64,000 bases of DNA from an uncultured bacterium (lineage in GTDB: Bacteria; Armatimonadota; Hebobacteria; CAIYQO01), in assembly GCA_964638715.1 (NCBI GenBank), contig CAZWZF010000020.1, positions 6,653 to 70,652 on the forward strand, in the 5' to 3' direction. A model generated the notes under the pieces. It was not told the DNA's origin, made no database searches, and saw nothing but the letters and a program-made list of their open reading frames with translations. The position numbers and the translations under genes are program-made. Positions 10,648 to 49,312 of the stretch are shown piece after piece. The first letter of the stretch is position 1, and the number at the start of each line of letters is the position of its first letter.

Positions 10648-10682
10648 GCTAAAACCTCCCGATTTCGTCGCGTCGACGCATA

Positions 10683-11507
10683 TTATTTAACTGCGTATTT
10701 TACGCGCAGATTTTTTGCCATCTCGACATGGCTGTAATGTCCGCTGCGCACCGCAGTTATTCTGCCTTGCAAGCGGAATCCGGTTAATGCCAGGTCGCCC
10801 AATAAATCAAGCACCTTGTGCCATGCCGGTTCATTATGCCTTACATCGTTATTTAAATAACCGGTTTCGGTGATTATAACCGCGTTATCCAATGACCCGC
10901 CTTTTGCCAATCCGCTGTCCAGCAAATGCCGCACTTCGCGTTCAAGTCCATAGGTACGGGCAGATATTATATTTTCAATTACATCAGCATCAGTAATGTC
11001 GCCGCCAGCGGTCATTCCGGTTATTTTCGTCCCGGGTATAGTAATTTCCGCAAACAGTTCCAATTTATCTGACGCAGCAACATTAATATGCGAATTGCCT
11101 GTTGCCATGTCATCTTTATCTAATGCAATCGTTAATATTTCGCCTTCTAAACACCTTATTCCTGCCTGTTTCAGAATATCGTACCATATTTTTGCTGCGC
11201 CTTCTAAAGCCGGCAATTCCGGGCCGTCAACCTCAATATACATATCGGTTATTCCGCATAGGTAAATGGCAGCCATCAAGTGTTCAATAGTGCGCAGACT
11301 GGCTCCATTATTTGCTATCCTGGTGCAGCGGGTGGTGTCATCCACATACTCCGCCAGCGCGGGAATTTCTATCCCATTAACTGCAAATATTATACCGCAT
11401 CCAGACGATGCCGGTTTGCCTATGACATTAACCTGCTGTCCGGTATGCAGTCCGATGCCATTAATATGCCATTCATTATTTACAGTCGCTCTTTTCATGT
11501 CGAACAA
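10683..11507 (-). CDS. lpxC: UDP-3-O-acyl-N-acetylglucosamine deacetylase LpxC
   Basis: 274 aa ...KRATVNNEWHINGIGLHTGQQVNV...HLMAAIYLCGITD...SGHYSHVEMA shows the LpxC domain pattern. An alternative ATG start lies at 11498. It forms an lpxC-fabZ-lpxA operon. Confidence 0.9.
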   Translation of the reverse strand: MFDMKRATVNNEWHINGIGLHTGQQVNVIGKPASSGCGIIFAVNGIEIPALAEYVDDTTRCTRIANNGASLRTIEHLMAAIYLCGITDMYIEVDGPELPALEGAAKIWYDILKQAGIRCLEGEILTIALDKDDMATGNSHINVAASDKLELFAEITIPGTKITGMTAGGDITDADVIENIISARTYGLEREVRHLLDSGLAKGGSLDNAVIITETGYLNNDVRHNEPAWHKVLDLLGDLALTGFRLQGRITAVRSGHYSHVEMAKNLRVKYAVK

Positions 11508-11709
11508 ATTATATCAAAAATTTAAAAAAGTATGAAATACATGAAATTTCGGATGAAAGTAGTACAGATTTTATAGGTTCTTAATCAAGCTATTTTTGTT
11601 GTATAAAGAATAATTCCATAGCCCATAGCATCGCTCTCACCCTTATACACATTTTTATCAAATATATTTTGACTCCAGAGGAGTCACATATTTATAGAAA
11701 AGAATCAAT

Positions 11710-11778
11710 CATGAGATTTTCGACCCCAGCGTGGGTCGCATATAATGACCGACAATCTGCTTTGTTATATGCGACCCG
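11710..11778. repeat. Long inverted repeat (24-bp arms, 21-nt loop) 3-prime of galT
   Basis: cgaccccagcgtgggtcgcatata ... tatatgcgacccgcgctggggtcg has one mismatch in 24. It is not followed by a U-run on the galT strand, so it is not a canonical intrinsic terminator. Confidence 0.6.
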
Positions 11779-11810
11779 CGCTGGGGTCGTCTCAAATAAC
11801 ACATTATTTT

Positions 11811-12857
11811 CTACCCTTCCAAATAATGCACTTCAGACTGCCCGTGTAAACTTTTCGCTGCCGATTCGGCGGTTATGTCTCGTTGCGGGTTGCCCAGCAT
11901 TTCAAAGCCTACCATAAATTTTTTCACGCTGGCACTGCGCAATAGCGGCGGGTAAAAATGCGCATGCAGGTGCCATTCTTCATGATTGCCGCCATCGGTG
12001 GGAGCATGGTGCCAGCCCATGGAATACGGGAAGGAGCATTTGAACAAGTTGTCATATTTGCAGGTGATTTTTTTCAGAATATCGGCAAGCGAGGCTTTTT
12101 CTTTTTCTGTTAATTCTGCCAGCGATTTCACATGGCGGCGCGGCAGCAGCATTGTCTCGAACGGCCATGTCGCCCAGAAAGGAACCAACACCATAAAATC
12201 GTCATTTTCAACTACGATTCTTTCCTTCGTTTCTGCCTCTATTTTCAAGTAATCGCACAACAGGCATGATTGGGTTTCTGCCAGGTATTTGCTTTGATTA
12301 ACCAATTCCTTGGCGGGTTCGCCGGGAATATTTTCACTGGCCCATATCTGGCCATGCGGATGCGGGTTGCTGCACCCCATCATGGCACCTTTATTCTCGA
12401 ATATCTGTACGTAATTAATATAATCGCAGGCACCAAGTTCGATATACTGGTCTACCCACACATTTATAACGCCGGTAATATCTTCAATGCTCATGCGTGG
12501 CAGCGTCAGGTCGTGACGCGGTGAGAAACAAATCACCCGACACTTGCCGCGGTCGGCCTTGGCGCGCAGCAGGTTATTAACGTTCATCACACCGTCCGGG
12601 GTATCCGGCAGCAATGCGCTGAAATCATTGTCAAACACAAAAGTACTGGCATATTTCGGATTGCTGACACCCTCAGCGCGGGTATTGCCGGGGCACAGGT
12701 AGCATTTGGGGTCATACTGCGGACGATTGTCGGCGATTGCATCCTCTACCGCCCCCTGCCAGGGACGTTTGCCACGGTGCGGCGACACCAGCAGCCATTC
12801 ACCGTTAAGCGGGTTAAAACGCTGATGCGGATGTTCCGACATATTAAAAGACATCAA
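11811..12857 (-). CDS. galT: Galactose-1-phosphate uridylyltransferase (GalT, HIT superfamily)
   Basis: [12 protein letters not shown] zinc motif, the HPHGQIWAS active-site motif (HxHxQ) and [16 protein letters not shown]. Confidence 0.85.
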
Positions 12858-12937
12858 AATTACCTCGGGAAAGTTTAAGTTGAATATATATCTTTCGATA
12901 AATGAAGTAAAATTCCCTGCTGAACCAAAATGATATT

Positions 12938-13021
12938 ATTCACCACAAAAAAACGCAAAGACCGCAAAAGAAGACTAATTAATAACCTCTTTTGCGGTCT
13001 TTGTGTTCCATTGCGGTGAAT
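12938..13021. repeat. MITE-like element, family B, short copy (about 84 bp) between galT and fabH
   Basis: attcaccacaaaaaaacgcaaagaccgcaaaag...cttttgcggtctttgtgttccattgcggtgaat has the same outer TIRs as 7737-7900, plus a perfect internal 15-bp inverted repeat (caaagaccgcaaaag / cttttgcggtctttg). Confidence 0.55.
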
Positions 13022-13041
13022 CTATATCTTTTCAAAACCTT

Positions 13042-14019
13042 CTACCAGCGCATTGCCATTGCACCCCAGGTTAAGCCGCCCCCGAAGCCGACGAGGATTA
13101 TCAGGTCGCCTTTGTTTACCCGTCCCTGCTCAACAGCTTCGCTGAGAGCCAGCGGGATTGAGCCGGCGCTGGTGTTGCCGTATTCCTGCAGATTTACCAT
13201 CCAGCGTTCGATAGGTATGCCCAGCCGTTTTGCTGATGCGTCGATGATGCGCATATTTGCCTGGTGCGGTATAACCAGCGCGATATCGTCGACGACGGCA
13301 TTAATGCGCGACAGCACTTCGCGAACAGATTCTTCCAGAGATCGCACTGCAAATTTAAATACTTCGGCACCATTCATGCGTAGAAAATGTTCGTGCTTTT
13401 CAATGGTTTCGATGGATGCAGGTCGGCGCGAACCGCCCGCCGGTATGGTCAGCAAATCCGCACCGCTGCCATCAGCGCGCAGGTAAGATGCTAATATTCC
13501 ACTTCCCTGTTCTGTCGGCTGCAATACGCATGCTCCGCCGCCATCACCCAATAATACGCAGGTGCCGCGATCGGTATAATCGGTAATGCGCGATAAAATA
13601 TCTCCGCCAACCACCAGGGCATTTTTATATAATCTTGAGCCGATGAGCGACGCACCGACTGTTAAGCCATAAATAAAACCGGTACAGGCGGCGGCAATGT
13701 CAAATGCGGCGGCGTGAGTTGCACCCAGAAGATTTTGCAGCAAACAAGCGGTGGATGGCATTAAAGTGTCGCCGGTCACCGATGCCACAATTATGCAATC
13801 AAGGTCTGCGGCGTCTAACTTGGCTTCTTCCAATGCTGCCTGGGCGGCTGGCAATACCATATCTGATAAAGCCATATCTGGATCAGCGATGTGTCGGGTG
13901 ATGATTCCGCTTCGTGAGCGTATCCACTCATCTGAAGTATCCACCAATTTTTCCAAATCAGCATTTGTCATAATATGTTTTGGAGCACAAGCCTTAATTG
14001 AAGTAATCCCTGCTGGCAT
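13042..14019 (-). CDS. fabH: 3-oxoacyl-ACP synthase III FabH
   Basis: The start was set at the internal Met so that MPAGITSIKACAPKHIMTNADLEKLVDTSDEWIRSRSGI aligns with the canonical FabH N-terminus (M...GTGSYLPE..RTNADLEKMVDTSDEWI). It carries the active-site C in AAACTGFIYGL and the C-terminal GFGGGLTWGA. The track ORF extends to 14052. Confidence 0.9.
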   Translation of the reverse strand: MPAGITSIKACAPKHIMTNADLEKLVDTSDEWIRSRSGIITRHIADPDMALSDMVLPAAQAALEEAKLDAADLDCIIVASVTGDTLMPSTACLLQNLLGATHAAAFDIAAACTGFIYGLTVGASLIGSRLYKNALVVGGDILSRITDYTDRGTCVLLGDGGGACVLQPTEQGSGILASYLRADGSGADLLTIPAGGSRRPASIETIEKHEHFLRMNGAEVFKFAVRSLEESVREVLSRINAVVDDIALVIPHQANMRIIDASAKRLGIPIERWMVNLQEYGNTSAGSIPLALSEAVEQGRVNKGDLIILVGFGGGLTWGAMAMRW

Positions 14020-14078
14020 AATAGTATTTAACAATTCAGAATCTTTAATCACAGAAATCCCCTTTCCATATCAACCTT

Positions 14079-33632: not shown

Positions 33633-36600
33633 ATGGCTTCTTTAAATATAAATGACATTGTTGTAATTAATAAAGGTACTCTCGACCCGGATTTAGGCAT
33701 AGATATCGGGGGTTGGCAAGGTAAAATTACCGAATTCGAGGTTGAGAATGATGAGCAATTTGCTTGTGTTGAATTAGACGATTTTACCATTCTTAACATG
33801 GCTGATTGGATTATTAAATTCTGCGATGAAGAACGAATGGACATGGCATTGTTAAGAGTAGCGGTTGTTAACTTAACACCAGCCAAACCTGATGAAATAA
33901 AAGCGCACATTTTACAGAAAGCCGCTGAATTAGGTTCTCAATTCCATGATTTAACGCTTGAAGATGTTAAACTGCTTGCCGATTCAAATACAATATTCAA
34001 ACGCGGTAAAGACTATTATAATTCGGGAGCAATCCTGCATTATATAATATCCAATGGCAAAATCACCGCTCATGTTGAAGGAAGTTATAGCAATTATATA
34101 GTACATGCCGCTGAAGGACCAAGGGATATAAAAACGAATTGCACATGCCCATACGAAGGGGATATCTGTAAACATATCGTAGCGGTGCTGCTGAAAACTG
34201 TAAATGAAATTGCAAAAAGCAAACAGCTTTCCTTTGCTGAACTAATGAAAAATGGACCGGTATTAATATCAAAAACACCGAATATTAATGAAGTTAATAA
34301 TGCTATATCAACTGTTCAAACCCGGCATCAGCAAACAACTTCTGCCAATGATGAAATAGAGATAGCGACCCCGGAACCGATAGAGGAAATAGTTCCTGAA
34401 ATACAATCGCATTTGCTTGATATATTTCGGAAAGCTAAATCATTGACCCCGCTTTTTACCCGGGTAAACCATCGTGCCCACCCCATGGGAAAAGAACTAT
34501 TTCATAAAAAAGCTGCCGTATTGAATCATATAACAAATACTGCGGCTGAATTTGATGTTATAGAAGATGAAAAACTTTTATATCGGGTGAAAATAGTAAA
34601 CGATACGGATAGCCTGAGTGCGACAAAGATGTATTGCACCTGTTCCGGTTCGCGGGGGTACGGGTCGTATAATACTTGCGTTCATCAGGTAGCGGCAGTT
34701 TTCGCTCTGCATAAATTAGCTACGGATAATATCTCGCTGGAACAACAAAAAGCTGATACCGCATCAATATGGGAATCAAAATTATCCAATTTAATAGAAG
34801 GAACGAAAGCTGTAAAAAAACATCCATCAACTGCCGCAATACTGGCATTTTGTCTGAAAACAAATATTTCAACCGAAAAATGGAACTTAAAGGCATATAC
34901 CATCGCCACCTCGCATTTTGATGAAGATATTTTAAATGACCGGGCAGCGCTGCAAAATGCCATCTCTACCACCTTTAACTATCAAACAGCAAAAGAAATA
35001 TCACAATACAGTGCAATTCCGACAAACCTAATATATGGATCACCAGAATTAAACACCCTCGCGCGACTGGTAAGCCAGGCAAATTTTTATCACACCGGAA
35101 ATCCGCTGGAATTTTTGCTTCCTCAATTACGCAATGCGCTGGTATTTCATGGAGAACCGGATTATTACGGCAACCCATTTCTGCAGCCAATTATCGAGGT
35201 AGACCCCGAACCGCGAAAATTACTGCTTAATATTGAACAGGATGAAGTTAATATCTATATTCAACCCGCCATAATTGATGACGGAATTGAATATACATTA
35301 ACCCAGGAAGATACATCTATTGTTAATAATTCACCTTTGTGGATACTCGCGAAAAACAAGTTGCTGCTGATAGACGGCAATTATGAATTATTGCGGCGAC
35401 TATTGGAAACCCGCACGATAACAATACCTGTAGAAGGCAAGAAGAGATTCATCACCAACTATCTTCCCAAGCTGATTGACCGTGCTGAAGTATCTGGTGA
35501 TGCCATCGCCAACAAAATAGAATTGAGCGTAAAACCGGTAAACAGGGTTTATTTAACTGAAGACGAAAAATCTATCGTCGCTGAATTATCTTTCGGTTAT
35601 AATAATCTTGAGATACCGGCAGACACCTCCTGGCCGGAGAAATCGCTGCAATATGATGAAGATAGAAATATATTAGTCACAGTTACCCGCAATAAAGAAA
35701 TAGAGATGGAATCCTGGCGGATGATGAGTGAATTTGGCCTGAAACGCGACGGCGAACGCTTTATCCTCAGACAAAAAGTATCGCCGGTAGATTTCCTGCT
35801 GCGTCATCTGCCAAAAATGCAGGAATCCGGCTTTGAAGTGTTTGGCGAAGAAACATTGAAAAATAACCGGGTTAATAGAAATCAACCCCGGATGCGCATG
35901 TCGGTATCGTCTGGCATTGACTGGTTTGATGTAACGACAGTGGTCAGTTACGGCGATATAGAAGTCAGTTTGCTGGAAATCCGCAAGGCGCTTAAGCATC
36001 GGCAGGGATATGTTAAACTTCCTGATGGTTCGATGGGATTATTGCCGGATGAACTGTTAGCGCAATACCGCATGATATTCGCAATGGGACAAGAAACAGA
36101 GCAGGGAGTTCGCATGTCGAGAACCCAGGCTTCGCTGCTTGAATTAACATTAAGAAACACCGACGTGGTTACAGACGAGGAGTATACTAAACGCGTTGAG
36201 CAATTAAAAAACTTCACTCATATAGAAAACCGCCAGTTGCCAGCCAACTTCACCGGCGAATTACGGCATTATCAACAGGAAGGTTTCAACTGGCTGTATT
36301 TCCTGCATGATTACGGATTTGGCGGATGCCTGGCGGATGATATGGGCATCGGCAAAACGGTGCAGGCACTGGTTTTTCTGCAATCCCTGTTTGCCACCGG
36401 CCATACAAAATCCGCGTCGCTCATCGTTATGCCGCGCTCATTACTGGAAAACTGGGCACGTGAATCTGCCCGTTTCACCCCGGATTTAAAGGTGCTGATA
36501 CATGCCGACAATGACCGCAGCGACAGCCACACCTCATTTGACGGGTATCAACTGGTACTTACCACCTATGGCATTATGCTGCGCGATATAGAGTTGTTTA

Positions 36601-37643
36601 AAAAATATAAATTCCACTATATCGTACTTGACGAAGCACAGGTGGTAAAAAATGGCGTATCACAATCTGCCCGCGCCGCGCGACTGCTGCACTGCGAACA
36701 TCGACTGGCGTTAACCGGCACACCGGTAGAAAACTCTACCGAAGAATTATGGTCGCTCTTCGCCTTTCTCAATCCCGGGCAATTGGGCACTCAAAACGCA
36801 TTTCGCGATCAATTCGCCATTCCCATCCAACGTTATCAGGATGAAAAAGCGGCACAAATGCTGCGCGCGCTGGTACGCCCATTCATCCTGCGCCGAACCA
36901 AAGAACAGGTCGCGCCGGAATTGCCACCCCGCACAGAACGGCTTATTTTCTGCGAAATGTCAGCGGGTCAAAAGAAGATGTATGACCAAACCCGGGATAA
37001 ATACCGGGCAGAACTGATGGGATTAATTAAGAAAAGCGGCGTACAGCAGGCAAAACTGAAAGTATTGGAAGGCTTATTGCGGCTGCGGCAAATAGCGAAT
37101 GACCCGCGTCTGGTAGATAAAAGCTATGTCGGAGAATCATCAAAGTTCGAGGCTATTCTGGAAGCGATGGAAATACTGCGGGAAGAAGGGCATAAAGCAC
37201 TGATTTTCTCGCAATTCACCAGCATGCTAAAACTGCTGCGGACATCGATGGACGAACGCAAATGGCCATATTTATACCTGGATGGCAAAACGAAAAACCG
37301 CCAGGAAATGGTAGATAATTTTCAGACAGACGAAAATATCCCCTTCTTTCTCATTAGCCTTAAAGCAGGCGGAACCGGCCTGAACCTGACTGCCGCCGAC
37401 TACGTAATACATATTGACCCCTGGTGGAACCCGGCAGTAGAACGCCAGGCAACCGACCGAACCCACCGCATAGGACAGGAACGACCGGTAATGGTATACA
37501 AATTCATCGCCGAAGATACCGTGGAAAAGAAAATACTACTGCTGCAGGAAAAGAAACAAGCCCTGGTAAACCAGATAATCTCAACAGAAGCCGGCCTGAT
37601 GAAGTCGCTAACCCCAGACGACATCGCGGCGTTGTTTATGTGA
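33633..37643 (+). CDS. SNF2-family helicase with two SWIM zinc fingers and a long central region (1336 aa)
   Basis: Two SWIM zinc fingers are present: CTCPYEGDICKHIVAVLL at about aa 170 and CTCSGSRGYGSYNTCVHQVAAVF at about aa 325. The C-terminal about 480 aa is a SNF2 ATPase (LADDMGIGKTVQ, DEAQVVKN, TGTPVEN, helicase-C block LISLKAGGTGLNLTAADYVIHIDPWWNPA...QATDRTHRIGQ). Confidence 0.85.
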   Translation: MASLNINDIVVINKGTLDPDLGIDIGGWQGKITEFEVENDEQFACVELDDFTILNMADWIIKFCDEERMDMALLRVAVVNLTPAKPDEIKAHILQKAAELGSQFHDLTLEDVKLLADSNTIFKRGKDYYNSGAILHYIISNGKITAHVEGSYSNYIVHAAEGPRDIKTNCTCPYEGDICKHIVAVLLKTVNEIAKSKQLSFAELMKNGPVLISKTPNINEVNNAISTVQTRHQQTTSANDEIEIATPEPIEEIVPEIQSHLLDIFRKAKSLTPLFTRVNHRAHPMGKELFHKKAAVLNHITNTAAEFDVIEDEKLLYRVKIVNDTDSLSATKMYCTCSGSRGYGSYNTCVHQVAAVFALHKLATDNISLEQQKADTASIWESKLSNLIEGTKAVKKHPSTAAILAFCLKTNISTEKWNLKAYTIATSHFDEDILNDRAALQNAISTTFNYQTAKEISQYSAIPTNLIYGSPELNTLARLVSQANFYHTGNPLEFLLPQLRNALVFHGEPDYYGNPFLQPIIEVDPEPRKLLLNIEQDEVNIYIQPAIIDDGIEYTLTQEDTSIVNNSPLWILAKNKLLLIDGNYELLRRLLETRTITIPVEGKKRFITNYLPKLIDRAEVSGDAIANKIELSVKPVNRVYLTEDEKSIVAELSFGYNNLEIPADTSWPEKSLQYDEDRNILVTVTRNKEIEMESWRMMSEFGLKRDGERFILRQKVSPVDFLLRHLPKMQESGFEVFGEETLKNNRVNRNQPRMRMSVSSGIDWFDVTTVVSYGDIEVSLLEIRKALKHRQGYVKLPDGSMGLLPDELLAQYRMIFAMGQETEQGVRMSRTQASLLELTLRNTDVVTDEEYTKRVEQLKNFTHIENRQLPANFTGELRHYQQEGFNWLYFLHDYGFGGCLADDMGIGKTVQALVFLQSLFATGHTKSASLIVMPRSLLENWARESARFTPDLKVLIHADNDRSDSHTSFDGYQLVLTTYGIMLRDIELFKKYKFHYIVLDEAQVVKNGVSQSARAARLLHCEHRLALTGTPVENSTEELWSLFAFLNPGQLGTQNAFRDQFAIPIQRYQDEKAAQMLRALVRPFILRRTKEQVAPELPPRTERLIFCEMSAGQKKMYDQTRDKYRAELMGLIKKSGVQQAKLKVLEGLLRLRQIANDPRLVDKSYVGESSKFEAILEAMEILREEGHKALIFSQFTSMLKLLRTSMDERKWPYLYLDGKTKNRQEMVDNFQTDENIPFFLISLKAGGTGLNLTAADYVIHIDPWWNPAVERQATDRTHRIGQERPVMVYKFIAEDTVEKKILLLQEKKQALVNQIISTEAGLMKSLTPDDIAALFM

Positions 37644-37784: not shown

Positions 37785-39248
37785 TTACTTCACATTTGAT
37801 GCAGATGGTTTGTTATCTGCACGAGCATCAATAAGAATGATATCAGGATCATTATCTATTTCAAGTTCACGTAAAATGCTTTTTACACGTTTTTCTTCAT
37901 CTTCGGTGAAAAATACGATAACTTTTAATGATTTATTTGTTTGATTTGCAGTTTCATATACTTTAACCTGGTTTTCAAGGTTTTGTTTTAATTTAGAGTT
38001 TTTTGCTAGTTTAAACTCAACAAGTGATTTATCACGACTACCACGAGAGACTTTAAAATCAACTGGTCCACGACCATTATTAACCTCTCTATTGACATCC
38101 GATGGAGTCGCATACCATGTTAGTCGATAAAGGATTTGTAAATCTGACTCACGATGTATCGGCTCATCTCCTTTATCGAAAAGTCGATAACCATCATTGT
38201 GCTCAATAACTTGTTTTAAATAAAAAACTCGTTCTCGTGCTTCATCAAGAGTATCACCATGAATTTTATAAAAATCGGTATTTGATAAGATTTGTTCAAC
38301 AAACGTTTTCACCTGTGTAATAAATTGTTGTTCTGTTTCAGCAACATATTCATTACTAACATTTGCAGCTTCTTCACCATTATCTTCTTTATTACGAATA
38401 TAATAATCTATAATAGCAGGAAACCTTTGTATTGTGTTAAACCATGCAAACTCTTTATCTTTATTTTTTGATTTTTTAGATAATTGAGAGCGAAAATGAT
38501 AATCAATTTGACCTCGAAGTTGCTCATCTGGAATTGACGGTGGTATCTCATAATATCCTTTCTGTAATTCACAACGACTAATCCATGTTTCATGTCGAGT
38601 CAACATATCTTTTGGTGTCAAGATCACATAGTTTTTCCCATCAATTGTTGGTAAATAAAAAATATCTGTTTTCCAAATATTTTTATCATAGTCAAATCTT
38701 ACTTTATCTATACTGAACAATTGACAATATGATTTATCGATAAACTCACTGGCAAAATTTTGTGTGTAATTAAGTAAATATTCTTTTATTAAATTAACTG
38801 TGAAATCACTGATATTGTCGCGACCAACACCATTATCAATAAGACAAAGTTTTTCAAGGTGACTACCTTTAGTGATTTGTTCTTGTCCAAATGAAATGAA
38901 TTCATTGCGGAGATTTTGATATAATGAATATGCAAAATCTTTACCTAAACCAGAACCATTGTTTCCTACTGTAGAATATCCAAGCCAATTTTCCTTTACT
39001 TCTTTAAATGTAAACCACCGAAATAATAGTCCGTCAGAAATCGAATCAGAAACAGCTACATCGCGAAGAAATTGGAGATATCGAATTATCCCATCATGTA
39101 AATCCTGGTATTCCTGTTTTGAACTGCCAAATAATAAGAATGGGTCAATAAATAGCGGTAAATCATTAACCAATGATATATCAAAAGCACCATATTTTTC
39201 AAGAATATCTGGATCAACTTCAAAAAAATCTGAAAAGTAAATTAACAT
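37785..39248 (-). CDS. Hypothetical protein with a C-terminal PD-(D/E)xK nuclease-like motif
   Basis: 487 aa in AT-rich DNA. The C-terminal region reads ...HRESD(369)...GRGPVD(397)FKVSRGSRDKSLVE(411)FK(413)LAK, matching E/D...PD...(D/E)xK with 14-aa spacing. The N-terminal 350 aa has no recognisable motifs. Confidence 0.55.
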   Translation of the reverse strand: MLIYFSDFFEVDPDILEKYGAFDISLVNDLPLFIDPFLLFGSSKQEYQDLHDGIIRYLQFLRDVAVSDSISDGLLFRWFTFKEVKENWLGYSTVGNNGSGLGKDFAYSLYQNLRNEFISFGQEQITKGSHLEKLCLIDNGVGRDNISDFTVNLIKEYLLNYTQNFASEFIDKSYCQLFSIDKVRFDYDKNIWKTDIFYLPTIDGKNYVILTPKDMLTRHETWISRCELQKGYYEIPPSIPDEQLRGQIDYHFRSQLSKKSKNKDKEFAWFNTIQRFPAIIDYYIRNKEDNGEEAANVSNEYVAETEQQFITQVKTFVEQILSNTDFYKIHGDTLDEARERVFYLKQVIEHNDGYRLFDKGDEPIHRESDLQILYRLTWYATPSDVNREVNNGRGPVDFKVSRGSRDKSLVEFKLAKNSKLKQNLENQVKVYETANQTNKSLKVIVFFTEDEEKRVKSILRELEIDNDPDIILIDARADNKPSASNVK

Positions 39249-39306
39249 TATTTCTCCTAATTATGGGAACGATTAGTAAATATTTATTATGATTAATCAT
39301 CATTTC

Positions 39307-39906
39307 TCACACCTTCATTTTTTGCCATAAATAAACTTCAATATCTTTAATTGCATTTTTGAACTCTATAGAAAAGGCATCTTCATCTGATATATAAAAT
39401 AATATATTTGGTGGATTTTCATGAAGTAACTTTAAAATATCATCAGTTTTCTTTACTGAAAGTATCTTTAGGATTTGTACATACATCTTTTTAAATAACA
39501 TTTCAAATTTCTCAAATTTATTTATTACTTCATCTCCCCATAATACTTCAACTTCATTTTTTATCACATCATATTCAGCAACACATTGCATTACTTTATC
39601 CCAGCGTAAATTGTATACAGCTTTATAAACTTCAGCATCATTTATTTTATTATTATTCTCTATACCATATGTATTCAATGCATTAATTACTTCTACTCCT
39701 ATTAATGGATGTTGTCTTGTATTATAAATCGCATTTCTCACTTTATATACCGCAGCTAACATTTTAAGTGATAATTCATAAGATTTATTTCCTTTTAATT
39801 GTTTTCTCCATGTTTGAAGTCCTAACCAAGCAATAATAACAGCAAATAATGGAGCAACAACAGCAATAACATCTCTAATTATCGGCATAATATTATTATA
39901 TGACAT
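39307..39906 (-). CDS. Hypothetical single-TM protein translationally coupled to hsdS
   Basis: 199 aa with an N-terminal TM (IIRDVIAVVAPLFAVIIAWLGLQTW). Its ATG begins 2 nt after the hsdS stop (TAAAAATG). It is AT-rich, unlike hsdM and hsdR. Confidence 0.5.
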   Translation of the reverse strand: MSYNNIMPIIRDVIAVVAPLFAVIIAWLGLQTWRKQLKGNKSYELSLKMLAAVYKVRNAIYNTRQHPLIGVEVINALNTYGIENNNKINDAEVYKAVYNLRWDKVMQCVAEYDVIKNEVEVLWGDEVINKFEKFEMLFKKMYVQILKILSVKKTDDILKLLHENPPNILFYISDEDAFSIEFKNAIKDIEVYLWQKMKV

Positions 39907-39908
39907 TT

Positions 39909-41339
39909 TTATTTCCTCTTTTTACCAACCGTTACCACTTTCTTCTCCGCCTTTATCCTCCCCAACAATACCTTCGCCGGTTCGTCGTTCGGGTCTTGTG
40001 GTACCAGTTCACCGCGAAAGGCTTTGGCGAGGATGGATTGCGTGAGTCGGTCAACATGGGTTTTTGCCTGTTTGTAACGCGCTTCTACCTGGTCGGAAAA
40101 GGCGAATAAAGTTGTGACACGACGAACTATTTCTTGTTGTTCTTCAATTGGTGGAAGATTAACTTGTAATTCACGAACACGTTGACAATTGAGAGCCTGT
40201 GGTCCTGACCCATTACCTTCTTCACGATTCAATTCATAGCGATGTTGGAACCAATACCAAAGATACTCAGAATTAATAATATCAAATTGTGGAATTATTG
40301 CAGCAATATTTTGATTAATTGTCGCATCTATTTTCAAGATAGCAGTTTGACCACGAGTCTTACCCTCACCAATCATCGCTAATAATACTGTTCCTTTTGG
40401 AAGAATGTGAACTGAAGTTTTTTGATATCCAATTTCAGTAATTTGCTCTCGGGTATTAGTAATTTCATTGTTACGTACTTCACCTGAACTGACCCACGGT
40501 ATTGAACCACCCCAATATGTTAAATCTTTTCGGGATGGCGTACTACCATTACTGACTATTCCTATATGCCCAATATTACAACATAACCATGACATAGGTA
40601 ATTCTTTTTCTATATAACTATCAATATTAAGTGGATAATTGTTAACAAATTCATTAATAACTTTCAGTTCTCGTCCAGATAATGCATCATTTGAAAACCA
40701 TAATTTGCTTACTTTTAATAAAAGTTCAGAGGCATCCTCTTTTTCCCCAACTTCTTCTCTCCAATCCTCAGTCAACCTTCCAGAACACGCGGCGACAAGG
40801 ACGGACTGACGAAAACGTTTCAGGATGGTTGGCACTTTATCTATTTGGGCGCGACAGGCATCCACCCGCGCAAGTAGTTGCTCAAGTTTTGCGACTATTC
40901 TGTGTTGTTCTGGAAGAGGAGCTAAAGGAACATCAAGATTCCAAAACAATTCTGGATCAACATGTGGTATACCTGTACCCCGAGTATTTGAATTGATAGT
41001 ATCAAATTGTGATGTCAAGAAAAATCGTAAATAATCAGTATCAACTTCCTTTGGTGTCAATGCCATTATTGTAGACCCTATTGCACCCACTTGTCCTTTC
41101 CCGATCCAACCACTTCTTGCACCGTCCCAAACAACATAAATATCATTCTCATCAGTTAATCGTGATGATGATATCTCTGCATATTGCCTTGCAACACCTT
41201 TCTCAATAGCAAATATGTCAAGATAAGGAACGAAACCTTCTACAATCGTATCACGTTGTTGTTTAGGTTTTTTACCTTTCTTTTTTATGACAATTTCATC
41301 AAGACGAGTGGAAACCCACCCCTTCGGCAATTCACTCAT
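39909..41339 (-). CDS. hsdS: Type I restriction-modification system specificity subunit HsdS
   Basis: Two target-recognition domains separated by conserved repeats (LPPLPEQHRIVAKLEQLLARVDA... and LPPIEEQQEIVRRV...LTQSILAKAFRGELVPQDPNDEPA). The start was moved to the internal ATG (MSELPKGWVS) that overlaps the hsdM stop by 8 nt. The track ORF extends 135 nt into hsdM. Confidence 0.9.
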   Translation of the reverse strand: MSELPKGWVSTRLDEIVIKKKGKKPKQQRDTIVEGFVPYLDIFAIEKGVARQYAEISSSRLTDENDIYVVWDGARSGWIGKGQVGAIGSTIMALTPKEVDTDYLRFFLTSQFDTINSNTRGTGIPHVDPELFWNLDVPLAPLPEQHRIVAKLEQLLARVDACRAQIDKVPTILKRFRQSVLVAACSGRLTEDWREEVGEKEDASELLLKVSKLWFSNDALSGRELKVINEFVNNYPLNIDSYIEKELPMSWLCCNIGHIGIVSNGSTPSRKDLTYWGGSIPWVSSGEVRNNEITNTREQITEIGYQKTSVHILPKGTVLLAMIGEGKTRGQTAILKIDATINQNIAAIIPQFDIINSEYLWYWFQHRYELNREEGNGSGPQALNCQRVRELQVNLPPIEEQQEIVRRVTTLFAFSDQVEARYKQAKTHVDRLTQSILAKAFRGELVPQDPNDEPAKVLLGRIKAEKKVVTVGKKRK

Positions 41340-42750
41340 CAAAACTTCCCCCGTTGGAGTCGATAAGCAGCAATATCTCCTGCAAATCAATAACGGCGGC
41401 TTCCAATGCGGTGATGGCTTCGGCAGCCAGGTCTTGCGGTTCCGGCAAGGTGTCGGGGTCGTCGAGGGAGTCATCTTTCAGCCAGGTTATATCGAGTTTG
41501 TAATCCCGCGCCTTGATGTCGCTGATATGGAAACGGCGAAAACGGCATTCCTCGCCAAGGTCGGATCGCGGACTGGTACCGTTGGGGTTTGCGCCGTAAA
41601 CAGCCTCGAAATCGTCAAAATGCGCGGCAATTAACGGACGGTCTTTCTTGGTAATTCCAGGCACATTGCTGCGGGCATCGTAAATCCAGGTGTATTCGGT
41701 AGGCATCCCCTTTTGAAAGAAGATAACATTTGCCTTTACCCCCTGGCTGTATGGGGTAAAGGTGCCGCGCGGCAGCCGCAATACCGTATGCAGGTTGCAG
41801 TCCTGCATCAGCAATTCAAATACTTCACCCGCCTTGCCTTCAAACAGGCAGTTGTCCGGCAGCACCATTGCCGCCCGCCCGCCAGGTTTAAGGGTAGTCA
41901 CAACATGCTGGATAAAGTTCAACTGTTTATTGCTTGTCTCAATTGTAAAATCATCCCGCGCCGGCGCCTGATTCGCTCCCTTGGTACCAAAAGGCGGGTT
42001 GGTGAGAATGCAATCAAAACGTTCTGGGCCAGCCGGTTCGTAAATGGTATCGCCGAGTTTTATATGCGGTTCCACGCCATGCAGGTAAAGATTCATCAAC
42101 GCCAGCCGCCGGGGACGATGCACCAAATCCTGACCATAATAGGTTTCAAACTTTATATGACCGGCAATCTTTCTGTCCATTACTCCGCCGGTAATTTCTT
42201 TCAACCATTCATAAGCACAAACCAGAAAACCGCCGGTACCGCACGCCGGGTCGCAAATGGTGAAGCCGGGTGATACGCGCGGGTCGGGCTTCATTACTCG
42301 TACAATAGACTGAATCAATACCCGCGGGGTGAAATATTGCCCTGCTCCCTTTTTCCCCTCGCTGGCTGCCCTCTCCAGCAATCCCTCAAACGCCTGCCCC
42401 TTCACGTCAACATCCATGGCCGACCATTCTTCCTCGTCTATCATGGCTATAACGCGTTTCAGGTTAACCGGGTTGTTAAACCGCGGCATAGACTGGGCAA
42501 ATATATCGCCAAGTATCCCCGGTTCATCGCGCAATACCCGCAATGAATCGCCAAAATGGTCCATCAACTCCTGTCCCGACTTGCCGCAAAGCGTCTCCCA
42601 GTCATACCCGTCAGGAAGTTCCACATTACGTTCATGCGCCATCTTTAAAAACAGCAGGTAAGTAAGCTGCTCAATATAATCGCCATAATCAATGCCATCA
42701 TGCCGCAGCGTATGGCAAAATCCCCAAAGTTTATTTACAATGTCAGACAT
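41332..42750 (-). CDS. hsdM: Type I restriction-modification system DNA methyltransferase subunit HsdM (N6-adenine)
   Basis: N-terminal HsdM_N helix bundle, AdoMet motif I (DPACGTGGFL) and catalytic motif IV NPPFG in ILTNPPFGTKG. Confidence 0.9.
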   Translation of the reverse strand: MSDIVNKLWGFCHTLRHDGIDYGDYIEQLTYLLFLKMAHERNVELPDGYDWETLCGKSGQELMDHFGDSLRVLRDEPGILGDIFAQSMPRFNNPVNLKRVIAMIDEEEWSAMDVDVKGQAFEGLLERAASEGKKGAGQYFTPRVLIQSIVRVMKPDPRVSPGFTICDPACGTGGFLVCAYEWLKEITGGVMDRKIAGHIKFETYYGQDLVHRPRRLALMNLYLHGVEPHIKLGDTIYEPAGPERFDCILTNPPFGTKGANQAPARDDFTIETSNKQLNFIQHVVTTLKPGGRAAMVLPDNCLFEGKAGEVFELLMQDCNLHTVLRLPRGTFTPYSQGVKANVIFFQKGMPTEYTWIYDARSNVPGITKKDRPLIAAHFDDFEAVYGANPNGTSPRSDLGEECRFRRFHISDIKARDYKLDITWLKDDSLDDPDTLPEPQDLAAEAITALEAAVIDLQEILLLIDSNGGSFDE

Positions 42751-42868
42751 ATAATGTTTTCCTATATATTTGCGAATGATAACAACAACAATTCAATATT
42801 CCCCATGGAATTAATGTTAATTTAAAAAATTACAATAAAACTATTGATTTTAATATTTATAAATAATA

Positions 42869-43387
42869 TCAAACCTGACCAGTAATTTTTATAAACGTAT
42901 TAAATAGTGCTATTTTTGTTTTATTTTTTGTATCATATGTACAACTGCTAAACACTGTATCTCCTAATGACTTCATGCCATATTTAGGATAAGCAATGCT
43001 AAAACTCCATCTGCTGTTTTTTGGAAATACAGTTAGTGTGTAATCATCTATAACTAAATAATCATTCCCTTTAGCAGACATTTTCCAAACACGATTTAGC
43101 CACCGTTTACGTCTATTGGCAATATTTCTAAGTGCTCTTTCCCTATTTTCTGCATCAACATAATCATCAGACATTTTTTGAGCGCATACACTACCTACTC
43201 CTATCACATCAGGATAATCTTCATGTTTCATGTAATGAATATATCTTAGACCCTCATTTTCACACATCTCGCAAAATTGATAAGGAATAGCTTCTCCTTC
43301 TTCTAAATTTTCTCCAAGATCATGAACATCAACACACTCCCAACCCTTATGAGGTATATTAGGTTTATCCCATAATCCACTCATCAT
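42869..43387 (-). CDS. Hypothetical Cys/His-rich protein embedded between hsdR and hsdM
   Basis: 172 aa, AT-rich, with WECVDVH...FCEMCENEGLRYIHYMKHEDYPD...SVCAQKM (CxxC...HxxxH...C). It lies 18 nt downstream of hsdR and 118 nt upstream of hsdM on the same strand. No family recognised. It is possibly a zinc-ribbon/HNH-like fold. Confidence 0.5.
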   Translation of the reverse strand: MMSGLWDKPNIPHKGWECVDVHDLGENLEEGEAIPYQFCEMCENEGLRYIHYMKHEDYPDVIGVGSVCAQKMSDDYVDAENRERALRNIANRRKRWLNRVWKMSAKGNDYLVIDDYTLTVFPKNSRWSFSIAYPKYGMKSLGDTVFSSCTYDTKNKTKIALFNTFIKITGQV

Positions 43388-43405
43388 TTACCTCCATTAT
43401 TCTTT

Positions 43406-46099
43406 TCATACCGCCACAGCCTCATTAAGCTCTTCAATTAACCATTGCAGAACATCCGGCTGAAATACCCGTTGTGCCCGACCCAGCCCGCCGTGCTGCT
43501 CGAATACCGGAATAAGGTTAAGGTCATTTATATCTATGGTGAGATTTTCTACCAGGTGCTCGCGAATGTAACCAAGCCATGCCTGCTGTTCACTGGAGAA
43601 AGTTTTGCCTGTTGTCACCTGCTGCATAGCTTTATCAACGCGCTGTTCGGCGGTTAACAGCGGTTCTTCTTCGCGGGCGGCGTGTTTTACCATTGATATT
43701 ATATCTGCCAGCGCGATATGATACACTTCGCTGTGCGCGTCGCGCAATGCCGATTCCGGGAATCCCTGCATACCTAATTTTATTCTCAAATCATCCAGCA
43801 CTTCCGGCCGCCAACCGGCAGGACGTTTTAATAGAACCTGCAACCCGTCTATTTCATCGCGTTTTTCATTCACAAAACGGCTGAATGCAGTCAGGTAATC
43901 CTCGGGTTTAAGGGTGTTATCGCCAACGCGGAAAATGCGCTCTGACACGACGTTATCCTGTATATCGTTGGCAATCCAAAATGACCGTGGCGCGCGTTCG
44001 TAATTCACCAATAATTTCTGAAAATCAGAATTTCGCAGAAGATTCATTGTATCAATAAAGTTTCTATCCAGTCTTCCCGGCAATTCATTGGCAAATAGTT
44101 CCATATTGCCGTCGGATATTCCCCACTGCGCAAATGCGATACGGGCATTCCCGCTCATATCGCGGCTAATCCGGCGTAAGCGTTTTTGCAATACCCGGAT
44201 ATGATATTCGCGCTCAACATTCTGGTAAATATTCTCAATTACCTGAACAATACCAAGCGGGTCTTTAGGCGGCAGCGTAATTTGAAAATCGGTGGCATTA
44301 CGGAAATATTCAATGAGAGTACCATCAAAACAATCAAAAACGGTAAAGTTTGTCTTGTTAATATCAGTACAAAGCCGCGTACCACGACCAAGCATCTGTG
44401 TCCAAAGAATGCGCGACTTAACCGGACGCAGGAAAACGATAAACTCCAATGCCGGAATATCAACACCGGTGGAAAGCATATCAACGGTGACAACAATTTT
44501 TGGATTAGGTCGGTTGCGAAATTCGCGAATACGCTGCAAAGGACGGTCAACAGTGGGACTGCCGGTGATTTTCTGTACAAATTCATCACCGCGCTTGAAA
44601 ATATCGCGGCACTGCTGCACCAATTGGTCGGCATGCGAGGTATGCGGCAAATCGTTAGCCGCAAAAATCAGCATTTTGGGAAAACGCCCGGTTTCTTCCT
44701 CATGCCTCAGCGCATAACCAGCGATTTCCTGCATAATGCGCCGATTGCTGTCAGGTGCGGTAATGCGTGATTCGATATCAGAGGTATCAAATTGCCGTTC
44801 ATCTTCCAACCTGTCCTGAAACAAAGTGCCGGTTTCAGGATTAACAACCCCAACATTATCACCCTCGCGCAGAAAAACACCGTTCATGCGGACATCAGAA
44901 TGTATGCGCACAGCATCATAATCAACAAGATAACCATCTGCTATCGCTTCTTCAGTGGTATAGCGGTAAACAGGTTCGCCAAACAGGTTTACCGTATGAC
45001 TTGCCGGTGTCGCGGTAAGCCCAATCTTCAGCGCGTCAAAATGATCCATCACCTGCCGCCATATACCGAGTTCCTGCGAGGTATAACCACGGTGACACTC
45101 ATCAGCAATTATCACATCAAATGCAGATATTGGAATATCAAGAATATTTGCGTCTTCTTCTAAATCCGGGTCATTGGCATTTTGAGCGAATGAGTATTGA
45201 GGGCCATAAAGATTAATCGCCATCCGCTGAATAGTTGAAACGTATACGAAGGTTTGAGATTCTTTAGGCGAAGTCAGATAACTACCGGGCAAAACTTTCG
45301 GGTCGAAGGTTTGATTATCAGAATCTTCCAAATCTTCACGGCGAAATTGCTGATGAAAAACTTCGTATTCCTGATTGAACTTATTGCCATGTTGAGTTTG
45401 AAAAGAAGCAAATGCCATGACAGCCTGTGCCGCCAATGCGCGACGGTCTACCAGGAAAAGGATTCTCTTTGCAACTGTGGATTTCAACAAACGATATATC
45501 TGTGCAACCGTGGTGAATGTTTTCCCGGTACCGGTCGCCATAGCAACAAGAAAAGAACGCTGGCCACGGGTAATGCCATCTTCAACAGCTTCAATTGCTT
45601 CACGCTGATAATTTCGTATGCCTTGAATATTAACAGGATTATTGGCGAACCAATCATTTCGCGTTGAATGTGAAAACATCTCTTCGAGTGCGTGAATATT
45701 GTGATAATTTGCTAATCGCCGCGACATGGCACGGTCGTCGCGTATATCAATAAACCAGATAGTTTCGCCATTGGTAGAGTAGAGGAAGGGAACGCCGTAT
45801 TCACCCCATTTTCCTGCGTTGTTATGAATACCGCGGGAATAACGTTTTGCCTGTTCGAGAACATTATAAGGGTCTAATGCAACCTTTTTTGCTTCTATAA
45901 TCCCAAGAATTTTGCCATTTACAAAAAGTGCATAATCAGCCGGTCCGCTATCTGTCGGATATTCTTCAACAGCAACACCATGAAGACACGAACAATCCAG
46001 ACCATCCTGATACCGGATGATCTTCCATGGTGGGGTCATAGATTTCAAGCGGGCATCTATTCGCTTTTTTCTGGTTAGTTTCTCCGACTCATCAAACAT
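43406..46099 (-). CDS. hsdR: Type I restriction enzyme endonuclease/helicase subunit HsdR
   Basis: 897 aa with an N-terminal PD-(D/E)xK region (...YALFVNGKILGIIEAKK...), SF2 helicase motifs (MATGTGKTFT, DECHRG, TATP) and a C-terminal HsdR helical domain. Confidence 0.9.
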   Translation of the reverse strand: MFDESEKLTRKKRIDARLKSMTPPWKIIRYQDGLDCSCLHGVAVEEYPTDSGPADYALFVNGKILGIIEAKKVALDPYNVLEQAKRYSRGIHNNAGKWGEYGVPFLYSTNGETIWFIDIRDDRAMSRRLANYHNIHALEEMFSHSTRNDWFANNPVNIQGIRNYQREAIEAVEDGITRGQRSFLVAMATGTGKTFTTVAQIYRLLKSTVAKRILFLVDRRALAAQAVMAFASFQTQHGNKFNQEYEVFHQQFRREDLEDSDNQTFDPKVLPGSYLTSPKESQTFVYVSTIQRMAINLYGPQYSFAQNANDPDLEEDANILDIPISAFDVIIADECHRGYTSQELGIWRQVMDHFDALKIGLTATPASHTVNLFGEPVYRYTTEEAIADGYLVDYDAVRIHSDVRMNGVFLREGDNVGVVNPETGTLFQDRLEDERQFDTSDIESRITAPDSNRRIMQEIAGYALRHEEETGRFPKMLIFAANDLPHTSHADQLVQQCRDIFKRGDEFVQKITGSPTVDRPLQRIREFRNRPNPKIVVTVDMLSTGVDIPALEFIVFLRPVKSRILWTQMLGRGTRLCTDINKTNFTVFDCFDGTLIEYFRNATDFQITLPPKDPLGIVQVIENIYQNVEREYHIRVLQKRLRRISRDMSGNARIAFAQWGISDGNMELFANELPGRLDRNFIDTMNLLRNSDFQKLLVNYERAPRSFWIANDIQDNVVSERIFRVGDNTLKPEDYLTAFSRFVNEKRDEIDGLQVLLKRPAGWRPEVLDDLRIKLGMQGFPESALRDAHSEVYHIALADIISMVKHAAREEEPLLTAEQRVDKAMQQVTTGKTFSSEQQAWLGYIREHLVENLTIDINDLNLIPVFEQHGGLGRAQRVFQPDVLQWLIEELNEAVAV

Positions 46100-47885: not shown

Positions 47886-48707
47886 ATGTTGGCTTTGGGG
47901 AATATTTTATTACAAATATATGATGCTAAATGGGCGGAGTTAACGCCGGAGTCGTGGCAGCGGCAATACATGGGTGATGTATTCTGGCGATTTTATCAGC
48001 ATAATGGCAATGGCGCTTATGTGCGGTCGAGTGATGTCACCCTGGAAATGACCACAGGTAGGATATATCTTATCCCGGCGGGTGTCAGGTTTGACTATTG
48101 GACTTCGCAAAAATGCGGGCAATTTTACGTTCATTTTGACTTGCCGGGAATATCGCGACCGGTATATTCAGAGTTATGCGACCGACCGGTGGCGGTGCGC
48201 AATGACCATGAATTGCAACATAACGCGGCGAAATTTGGACGATATATTCAAAACGGCGGCATCATGACATCATCGCGGGAATGTCAATTAAAGTCAGTGC
48301 TTTACGGCGCTTTGGCGCATTATTTTGACGATATCCCGGAAGAAAGATTCACTCGAGCACTGCACCGCGCGACATTTATGCAGCCAATCGGCCCGGCGAT
48401 AAAATATATTGAAGAAAATTACTCACGGCAAATAACCATCACCGAACTGGCAGAGATCTGCTGTCTGTCACCACAGCATTTTGTGCGAAAATTTGGCCAG
48501 GCCACCGGAATAACGCCAATACAGCACCTGCACACCCAGCGTGTTGGCGCGGCAGCAAAACTGCTGCTGTCTACCGATATCACTATTGACGAAATCGCGC
48601 TGCGAGTGGGATTTCACACCCGGGAATACCTGACGCGGATATTCACCCGCCACACCAGCATGTCGCCGGCAGCATACAGAAACACAATGAAAGCGAAACT
48701 AAAATGA
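47886..48707 (+). CDS. AraC-family transcriptional regulator
   Basis: An N-terminal cupin-like sensor domain and a C-terminal double HTH (ITITELAEICCLSPQHFVRKFGQATGITPIQHLHTQRVGAAAKLL...IDEIALRVGFHTREYLTRIFTRHTSMSPAAYR). Confidence 0.8.
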   Translation: MLALGNILLQIYDAKWAELTPESWQRQYMGDVFWRFYQHNGNGAYVRSSDVTLEMTTGRIYLIPAGVRFDYWTSQKCGQFYVHFDLPGISRPVYSELCDRPVAVRNDHELQHNAAKFGRYIQNGGIMTSSRECQLKSVLYGALAHYFDDIPEERFTRALHRATFMQPIGPAIKYIEENYSRQITITELAEICCLSPQHFVRKFGQATGITPIQHLHTQRVGAAAKLLLSTDITIDEIALRVGFHTREYLTRIFTRHTSMSPAAYRNTMKAKLK

Positions 48708-49312
48708 GCCTGTTCGATGATTTCTTTCGTACTAAAGAACCCCCGAAAAAACAAATAATAGATGTTCGCGAGGAGATAATGCCGGTAATCGTCAGCCTGG
48801 TCAAAGATATACCATTGTTATCTCATATCGACACCCGGCGCATTCGGTTATACGCCACCCAGGCGCGAACAGATAGTAAACACGGATCTTACGCAAAAAT
48901 TGTTCCGATGCGATTCCCGGACGGCAAACCATCCAGAACAAAGAAAACCCATACCGAAACCATCCAACAAATATCCGGACCGGATGGTGATATCCTGTAC
49001 CTGATTTACCTGTATGTTCCGCGCTTTTTAGAAGTAACCCTGGAAGAAAAAATGCTGACCCTTATCCACGAACTGTACCATATCAGCCCGGCATGCGACG
49101 GAACCATAAGAAAAGTAGGTCGCGGCGCCCACGGCCATTCCCGCGAGTCGTTCAACAACATGCTGAAACCGATAGTCCGTGAATATCTGCTGCACCATAA
49201 ACCGGAAGATATAACCATACTGCTGCGGGAAAAATACTCGACAATAGAAAAACAATACGAAATAACTTACCCCTCACTGCCTATGCCAAAGATAAGGGTG
49301 CATAGGTTGTAG
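48704..49312 (+). CDS. Putative HExxH zinc metallopeptidase (SprT/DUF45-like)
   Basis: 202 aa with HELYHI (HExxH) at about aa 122. It overlaps the araC stop by 4 nt (ATGA). The family assignment is tentative. Confidence 0.5.
   Translation: MSLFDDFFRTKEPPKKQIIDVREEIMPVIVSLVKDIPLLSHIDTRRIRLYATQARTDSKHGSYAKIVPMRFPDGKPSRTKKTHTETIQQISGPDGDILYLIYLYVPRFLEVTLEEKMLTLIHELYHISPACDGTIRKVGRGAHGHSRESFNNMLKPIVREYLLHHKPEDITILLREKYSTIEKQYEITYPSLPMPKIRVHRL

Follow-up and report, generated by a model that had tools for sequence, protein, structure and literature searches.

The open reading frame (ORF) considered in this study lies in a 64,000-nucleotide (nt) stretch of contig CAZWZF010000020.1, from an uncultured bacterium of the Armatimonadota. 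I will refer to the whole of this stretch as the window, with position 1 its first letter. The ORF is found inside an operon for type I restriction-modification (R-M), recognized by co-directional genes whose Pfam domains identify them as encoding HsdR, HsdM and HsdS. An original prediction, made from the sequence alone, had placed the ORF between hsdR and hsdM and in the same direction as both, and the coordinates, the strand and the flanking Pfam calls agree: all four genes are read from the minus strand. The features of the region are as follows, with lengths in amino acids (aa), G+C content as a fraction (GC) and G+C content at third codon positions (GC3).

43406..46099, minus strand: hsdR, 897 aa, upstream of the inserted ORF (Pfam HSDR_N, ResIII, SWI2_SNF2, Helicase_C, EcoEI_R_C; GC 0.457, GC3 0.424)
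43391..43395, minus strand: Shine-Dalgarno sequence GGAGG of the inserted ORF (letters of the minus strand: GGAGGTAAATGATG)
42869..43387, minus strand: inserted ORF, 172 aa according to the ORF list, or 171 aa if it begins at the ATG at 43384 (stop codon 42869-42871)
42751..42868, minus strand: AT-rich spacer of 118 nt between the inserted ORF and hsdM (GC 0.178)
41332..42750, minus strand: hsdM, 472 aa (Pfam N6_Mtase 5.6e-63, HsdM_N; GC3 0.573)
39909..41339, minus strand: hsdS, 476 aa on public contigs, with an 8-nt overlap with hsdM (Pfam Methylase_S)

The inserted ORF is AT-rich, as the original prediction had it, with a GC of 0.333 and a GC3 of 0.197, against GC3 values of 0.424 in hsdR and 0.573 in hsdM. 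An open frame of 172 codons has a probability of about 1e-7 at the local base composition, so a chance ORF may be excluded, and the ORF is a real gene of foreign composition. The Shine-Dalgarno sequence is separated by 3 nt from the ATG at 43387 and by 6 nt from that at 43384. The second ATG is the one chosen in public gene calls, giving a protein (P0001) of 171 aa, and this is probably the true length and the true start. The identical protein is found on eight contigs from metagenomes or metagenome-assembled genomes (MAGs), taken from several samples and having the same gene order; one of the MAGs is labelled only "bacterium". A scan of the window found on the minus strand around the ORF neither a consensus promoter nor a terminator, and no flanking repeats or target-site duplications, nor does any Rfam RNA element lie around it. 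Megablast against E. coli genomes gave no match.

A word-indexed protein search with the single sequence found two proteins, the identical one and a relative of 47% identity. When 1.84 billion cluster representatives were searched exhaustively with HMMER, 2,027 relatives emerged at E<=1e-3; 1,342 of these pass E<=1e-10 and 165 pass 1e-30. Conserved homologs therefore exist, a point on which the original prediction had staked the reality of the gene. A profile search of the annotated collection gave 439 proteins at E<=1e-5, and those listed are all called "hypothetical protein" by their sources and carry no Pfam domain. The inserted ORF itself has no Pfam match at E<=1 and no matching model in Pfam, NCBIfam, PADLOC or PHROGs; the sole hit to PADLOC v2.0.0 (5,027 models), at E 0.016, is to an internal stretch of a NERD+UvrD model. 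None of 117 aligned family members matches Pfam below E 0.01, only two of them match a PHROG, and searches of the PDB by sequence and by family profile returned noise. The accession numbers of the homologs are not mentioned in any paper found, the BrxR and BREX papers checked do not describe the family, and RptR is unrelated to it. The family, whose proteins are roughly 160 aa in size, is thus large, unannotated and unnamed.

Conservation in the family, measured in the alignment of 117 members, is concentrated in certain residues (90-100% conserved: W6, P12, G15, W16, D23, C39, M41, C42, R48, H51, H55, G65, C68, A69, M72, W101 and S104). Among these are the residues of the CxxC...HxxxH...C motif described in the original prediction, spaced C39-x2-C42-x8-H51-x3-H55-x12-C68, with conservation of 0.99 for C39, H51, H55 and C68 and 1.0 for C42; the peptide FCEMCENEGLRYIHYMKHEDYPD...C is present in the translation. 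The motif is therefore real and near-invariant, although the description of the protein as Cys/His-rich overstates the case, there being 5 Cys and 4 His in 172 residues. C18 is 83% conserved across the family. Position 66 is Cys in 91% of relatives and Ser in the window protein (43190-43192), and because of that Ser, Cys66 is probably not an essential metal ligand. The window protein also has an acidic insertion of eight residues, NLEEGEAI, ahead of the CxxC (residues 28-35, 43282-43305).

An AlphaFold2 model of the full protein, built with the 117-sequence alignment, has a pLDDT of 93.3 and a pTM of 0.80, and the N-terminal domain folded alone gives the same result (pLDDT 93.1). The model and the translation divide the protein into the following parts.

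43163..43387, minus strand: N-terminal acidic domain, residues 1-75 (AlphaFold2; W6, P12, G15, W16, D23, C39, C42, R48, H51, H55, G65, C68 near-invariant)
43184..43273, minus strand: Cys/His motif, CEMCENEGLRYIHYMKHEDYPDVIGVGSVC (from the translation; near-invariant; its best sequence echo, E 1.2 to a C2H2 zinc finger, is insignificant)
43088..43162, minus strand: basic linker helix, residues 76-100, YVDAENRERALRNIANRRKRWLNRV (from the translation; AlphaFold2 helix 76-96)
42872..43087, minus strand: C-terminal domain of four strands plus a helix, residues 101-172 (AlphaFold2 secondary structure; last helix 154-169)

The N-domain is modelled as a strand (17-23), a loop bearing the CxxC (39-42), a hairpin (49-55/58-64) that carries both H51 and H55, and a helix (66-73) that starts at C66/C68. 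The near-invariance of the motif makes a metal site in this domain plausible, and, going by the model, one zinc ion is probably bound by the CxxC knuckle, the two His of the hairpin and the Cys that opens the helix. The order of knuckle, hairpin and helix N-terminus would resemble that of a treble clef. The acidity of the protein is confined to the N-domain: its net charge in the window protein is -11, compared to +5 for the helix and +5 for the C-domain, and the family means are -5.6, +6.9 and +3.7, respectively. The overall pI of the window protein is 6.4.

Several known folds were considered for the N-domain. The original prediction suggested a small zinc ribbon or an HNH-like fold, neither of which finds support. 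There is a single CxxC knuckle (C39, C42), not the two of a zinc ribbon, the remaining candidate ligands being H51, H55 and C68, plus C66 in 91% of members. An HNH or His-Me finger is a beta-beta-alpha-metal fold with a catalytic His ending strand 1 and a metal-binding Asn or His in the helix. The model has a hairpin followed by a helix, with H55 at the end of the first strand, but no HNH profile matches the ORF, the 117 members yield a single noise match (HNHc_6, E 0.022), and neither Asn nor His is conserved in the alignment along the helix that follows the hairpin. In Foldseek, the N-domain by itself gives no nuclease, His-Me or other fold match in the PDB (best E 1.6). The spacing C-x2-C-x8-H-x3-H, along with the order of knuckle, hairpin and helix, is like that of treble-clef and C2H2-like fingers, either eukaryotic or of the prokaryotic Ros/MucR type (C-x2-C-x9-H-x3-H). 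In the model, however, both His lie on a beta-strand rather than on an alpha-helix, at a pLDDT of 93. The best PDB match to the family by sequence is a finger of ZNF484 (E 1.2), with no C2H2 match in Pfam.

The C-domain has conserved aromatic residues (W101, Y110, F121, W127, Y151, F162), with aromatics conserved on its strands. All of the top PDB matches found by Foldseek with the full model fall on this domain, and all are weak: PUR-alpha, Sub1/PC4 with single-stranded DNA (ssDNA), and the WGR domain of PARP2 with DNA ends (E 0.045-0.9, query-normalized TM-scores of about 0.2-0.3). The likeness to Sub1/PC4, PUR-alpha (Whirly-like) and the PARP WGR domain lies in the topology of the C-domain and in its conserved aromatic and basic surface. 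No Pfam match accompanies it, and when the profile of the C-domain was compared by hhalign with the WGR proteins of the plasmids and with human PC4, the result was negative. A structure search of BFVD added nothing. A group of proteins from Oscillospiraceae gut phages (L011 4995-5537; L122, L124, L130, L131, L134-L136) match only residues 6-112, at 47-50% identity. This covers the N-domain and the basic helix only, so the C-domain must be dispensable or replaced in that phage lineage.

Fusions, surveyed in the best 150 HMMER representatives, join the whole two-domain module to other proteins. Linked to a UvrD-type helicase, it may be N-terminal (P0058, P0076, P0098) or C-terminal (P0140, P0151), and further fusion partners are RNase H (P0027) and a Toprim domain (P0047). 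The substrates of every one of these partners are DNA or RNA:DNA hybrids. The C-domain is duplicated in P0107.

To place the family in its genomic settings, genomes were scanned with a peptide pattern, one genome per species, yielding 178 confirmed loci, 80 of which were kept. In 41 of the loci (within L012-L087) the proteins are at least 80% identical to one another, though their hosts range over Beta- and Gammaproteobacteria, Planctomycetota, Acidobacteria, Sericytochromatia and Caldilineales. When loci with differing neighbors are compared (e.g., L042 with L016, L052 and L084), a nucleotide similarity of 76-88% sets in at the start codon and ends about 12 nt short of the stop codon. The homology is bounded by the ORF, and therefore the gene moves as a gene-sized unit without a promoter or operator of its own. 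Searches by tblastn found the family on 47 plasmids, 34 of them conjugative (IncC-type plasmids of Aeromonas and E. coli, and plasmids of Rhizobium and Agrobacterium), and in four of 50,697 phage records. It is carried also as cargo of integrative and conjugative elements (ICEs), and IMG/VR has 67 loci, many within a few kb of a contig end.

The contexts of the gene are variable yet rich in defense systems, and no conserved neighbor or partner gene was found across sequence clusters. The answer to the question posed with the original prediction, whether homologs always occur inside type I R-M operons, is no. By marker tblastn over 157 loci, grouped into 69 clusters at 70% identity, 10 loci from 5 clusters have hsdM within 1.5 kb of the homolog; at 10 kb the figures are 16 loci and 6 clusters. 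Even so, type I R-M is the most recurrent single neighbor by cluster count, and the homolog is met with in all arrangements relative to the hsd genes. The homolog follows hsdR-hsdM-hsdS, with overlapping stop and start codons, in L082; it precedes hsdR (of the EcoEI_R_C type), an ORF and hsdM in L102; and it is divergent from hsdM-hsdS-hsdR in the L052 group and L106. The order in L128 is HamAB-homolog-hsdM-hsdS, HamA-HamB being Hachiman. In L074 it is hsdM-hsdS-homolog-(hsdS fragments, reverse transcriptase)-hsdR; the stretch between hsdS and hsdR in this Treponema MAG (10476-14070) holds two fragments of hsdS, each of half size, and codes for a protein of 807 aa that weakly matches a DRT (UG24) reverse transcriptase.

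Gabija is a neighbor on pAsa4, where PADLOC confirmed GajA/GajB, and in L093, L094, L095 and L097/98, the order in L097 being homolog-DUF4238-GajA-GajB. On a Ti plasmid, CBASS with CapP/CapH lies beside the homolog, and in L012 a patatin gene adjoins it. In the largest cluster, the homolog is divergent from a WYL-PsyrT-PsyrA operon. Further neighbors include BREX, AbiE, a type IIG R-M system with an HKD-Snf2 protein, SIR2, TIR, HNH, DUF488 and RhuM.

Two recurrent companions of the gene deserve separate mention. A protein of 646-689 aa with a C-terminal ADP-ribosylglycohydrolase (ARH) domain is encoded 16 nt upstream of the homolog in 15 of the 80 genome loci (e.g., L042 7915-10510), between it and the divergent WYL-PsyrT-PsyrA operon; marker tblastn places the ARH gene within 1.5 kb of the homolog in 19 loci, from 2 clusters. 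It matches no PADLOC model. On two plasmids, Rhodovulum pRGUI03 (L010 6925-8468) and Sulfitobacter p4 (L094 2955-4497), a WYL protein, an 84-aa WGR protein and the homolog form a co-directional trio, with the WGR gene directly upstream of the homolog; the trio adjoins BREX on one plasmid and Gabija on the other. The WGR and ARH neighbors are two links to domains of ADP-ribose and DNA-break signaling, which may be coincidence.

The best reading of these observations is that the inserted ORF is a recently and horizontally acquired, promoter-less, single-gene cassette in the hsdR-hsdM junction. That it belongs to a mobile class of defense-island cassettes encoding a nucleic-acid-binding protein is a tentative conclusion, to which I assign a probability of roughly 0.45. 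Transcription of the cassette would most likely be joint with that of the hsd genes, its own Shine-Dalgarno site serving for translation. The basic helix and the C-domain are proposed as the nucleic-acid-binding parts, with single-stranded or structured DNA (ssDNA, DNA ends or junctions) the most likely target, and the conserved acidic N-domain would serve as an element of specificity or of contact with a partner. The protein may act alone, as accessory cargo of defense islands and mobile elements rather than as a dedicated type I R-M subunit, and its role would lie in phage or plasmid conflict, in sensing or blocking foreign DNA. The idea in the original prediction of a conflict-related cargo gene, taken generally, fits these genomic contexts.

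The premise behind that idea, that type I operons normally have nothing between their genes, is outdated: Payne et al. (bioRxiv 10.1101/2024.01.29.577857) report that BREX, DISARM and type I R-M systems contain 17,432 non-redundant embedded genes. Such embedded genes are enriched for defense functions, and the prior for a defense role is raised on that account. A more specific proposal is possible but doubtful: that the protein is a single-gene immune or immune-modulating module, in which an undescribed zinc-binding N-terminal fold is joined to a PC4/WGR-like sensor of DNA structure in phage or plasmid intermediates, and that it spreads as a promoter-less, gene-sized cassette for which many different defense systems (type I R-M, Gabija, CBASS, PsyrTA and Hachiman) supply the transcription unit.

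A number of points weigh against the cassette as a DNA-binding defense gene. Neither experiment nor homology links the family to a function, and a small protein with no recognizable enzymatic domain would be unusual as a one-gene defense system. None of the 145 embedding-derived PADLOC candidates matches the ORF. The fold likeness of the C-domain is weak (Foldseek E>=0.045, hhalign negative), and the acidic N-domain is unlikely to bind DNA itself. The association with defense consists of many qualitative cases, and the 80 genome loci were fetched with a single peptide pattern, their neighbors being called by a crude ORF caller and marker BLAST. Finally, the position of the gene, often 5' of defense operons or divergent from them, would suit a regulator as well.

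The last of these points leads to the view that the protein controls, transcriptionally or post-transcriptionally, the immune operon next to it (hsdM-hsdS in the window), as a zinc-based counterpart of WYL-domain BrxR/CapW, RptR or the C-proteins of R-M systems. Like them it is small and found beside many unrelated defense systems, a promiscuity reminiscent of BrxR; it has a basic helix; and it lies 5' of the operon or divergent from it in the window (upstream of hsdMS), L128, L102, L097, pAsa4, the L052 group, L095 and L106. I nonetheless regard this view as unlikely. Those regulators differ from the inserted protein, which has a zinc-type motif and, in Pfam searches, neither a helix-turn-helix nor any other recognized domain for reading DNA. 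For RptR, a helical dimer of 79 aa, the binding sites are conserved along with the gene, whereas in this family the DNA shared between neighborhoods begins with the start codon, nothing upstream is carried along and so no cognate operator is co-inherited. Moreover, the homolog is the last gene of the operon in L082, L074, the CBASS operon of the Ti plasmid and L012, a WYL regulator is already present at many loci, and fusions to UvrD, RNase H and Toprim are untypical of repressors.

The protein could instead be an anti-defense factor, or one that benefits the plasmids, ICEs and prophages carrying it, by inhibiting or modulating host nucleases or helicases (UvrD/GajB-like proteins, HsdR) or by alleviating restriction and so tempering the adjacent enzyme. 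Carriage on 47 plasmids (34 conjugative), as ICE cargo and on 67 IMG/VR contigs is in keeping with this, as are the very acidic N-domain, the recurrence near Gabija and the fusions to UvrD-type helicases. It is made distinctly improbable by the rarity of the family in sequenced phages (4/50,697 records), by the location of the plasmid copies among defense cargo and not in recognizable leading regions, and by the chromosomal copies that are translationally coupled within a host R-M operon (L082 and the window), where an inhibitor would be self-defeating. A pI of 6.4 overall is unlike that of DNA mimics, and no member of the alignment matches an anti-restriction protein (ArdA, KlcA/ArdB, ArdC or Ocr-like) in Pfam or PHROG profiles.

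The original prediction favored an anticodon nuclease, an Abi protein or an anti-restriction factor, and none of these identities is borne out by matches in Pfam, PADLOC, NCBIfam or PHROGs; among the 5,027 PADLOC models, which include candidate (PDC) proteins embedded in R-M operons, there was no usable match to an Abi or other known or candidate defense protein. Related to these is the notion of a dedicated type I partner, whether a guard or toxin like PrrC/RloC or a small HNH-like nuclease. The co-directional position within the operon and the prominence of type I R-M among neighbors speak for it, and the order of knuckle, beta-hairpin and helix in the model is common to treble-clef and His-Me fingers. 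Yet hsdM is missing within 10 kb of the homolog in about 90% of clusters. PrrC/RloC proteins, which are silenced by the type I enzyme, have an ABC-ATPase N-domain and a C-terminal anticodon-nuclease region in about 400 aa or more. The inserted protein has 172 aa, no P-loop and no anticodon-nuclease region. The evidence given above against an HNH fold applies here too, with no conserved Asn in the hairpin-helix unit, and a dedicated partner of any of these kinds seems very improbable.

The inserted ORF resembles PrrC/RloC, DarTG2 (in the RRDM island of enteropathogenic E. coli) and the PADLOC PDC candidates of Payne et al. in being a foreign gene nested co-directionally between hsd genes, where guilt by embedding may be argued. 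It bears no sequence relation to them, is far smaller, lacks their ATPase, nuclease or ART domains, and belongs to a family found mostly outside R-M operons. By the tests run, the protein is a member of none of the known systems with which it has been compared. Taken overall, the earlier interpretation was right that a foreign, co-directional gene with a plausible metal site is present, while the specific identities it offered are unsupported.

A search among genes nested in immune operons is a proven way to new anti-phage systems, and the present family, with more than 2,000 sequence clusters and a structure modelled confidently, is annotated in none of Pfam, NCBIfam, PADLOC and PHROGs. The protein is small enough for direct synthesis and testing, with concrete partners suggested by the UvrD, RNase H and Toprim fusions and by the type I R-M and Gabija neighbors. 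The occurrence in unrelated phyla of copies at least 80% identical, whose homology stops where the ORF does, makes a clean case for the study of single-gene shuffling between defense islands. Should the protein prove inert or a mere DNA-binding accessory, a recurrent "hypothetical protein" would still be cleared from the annotation of defense islands.

The window holds other genes of interest around the hsd operon. The start of hsdS given above (41339) is likelier than that of the longest ORF (521 aa, back to 41474), which overlaps hsdM by 143 nt. Past its stop codon is a second block of cargo.

37785..39906, minus strand: AT-rich cargo closing the operon on its 3' side, ORF199 and ORF487 (GC3 0.16 and 0.17)

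Because this AT-rich cargo directly follows hsdS, the hsd operon holds two independent foreign insertions. ORF199 (39307-39906, minus strand) starts 2 nt past the hsdS stop, has a hydrophobic N-terminus and gave no matches. ORF487 (37785-39248, minus strand) contains DUF8370/DUF8371 and matches the PADLOC candidate PDC-M36A (3.5e-19) and phrog_30194 (4e-28), so that a PDC-like gene stands at the 3' end of the same operon. A plus-strand gene (33633-37643), convergent with the R-M block, encodes a helicase of 1,336 aa with SWIM and SNF2 domains, matching the PADLOC models DpdE (1.8e-152) and ZorD (2.7e-123) but under NCBIfam cut-offs; it may be another defense-related gene of the same island. 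On the other side, hsdR is flanked by an aminotransferase gene, and just past it two plus-strand genes overlapping by 4 nt (47886-49312) encode an AraC-type regulator and a protein of 202 aa whose Pfam match, to PhageMetallopep, is weak.

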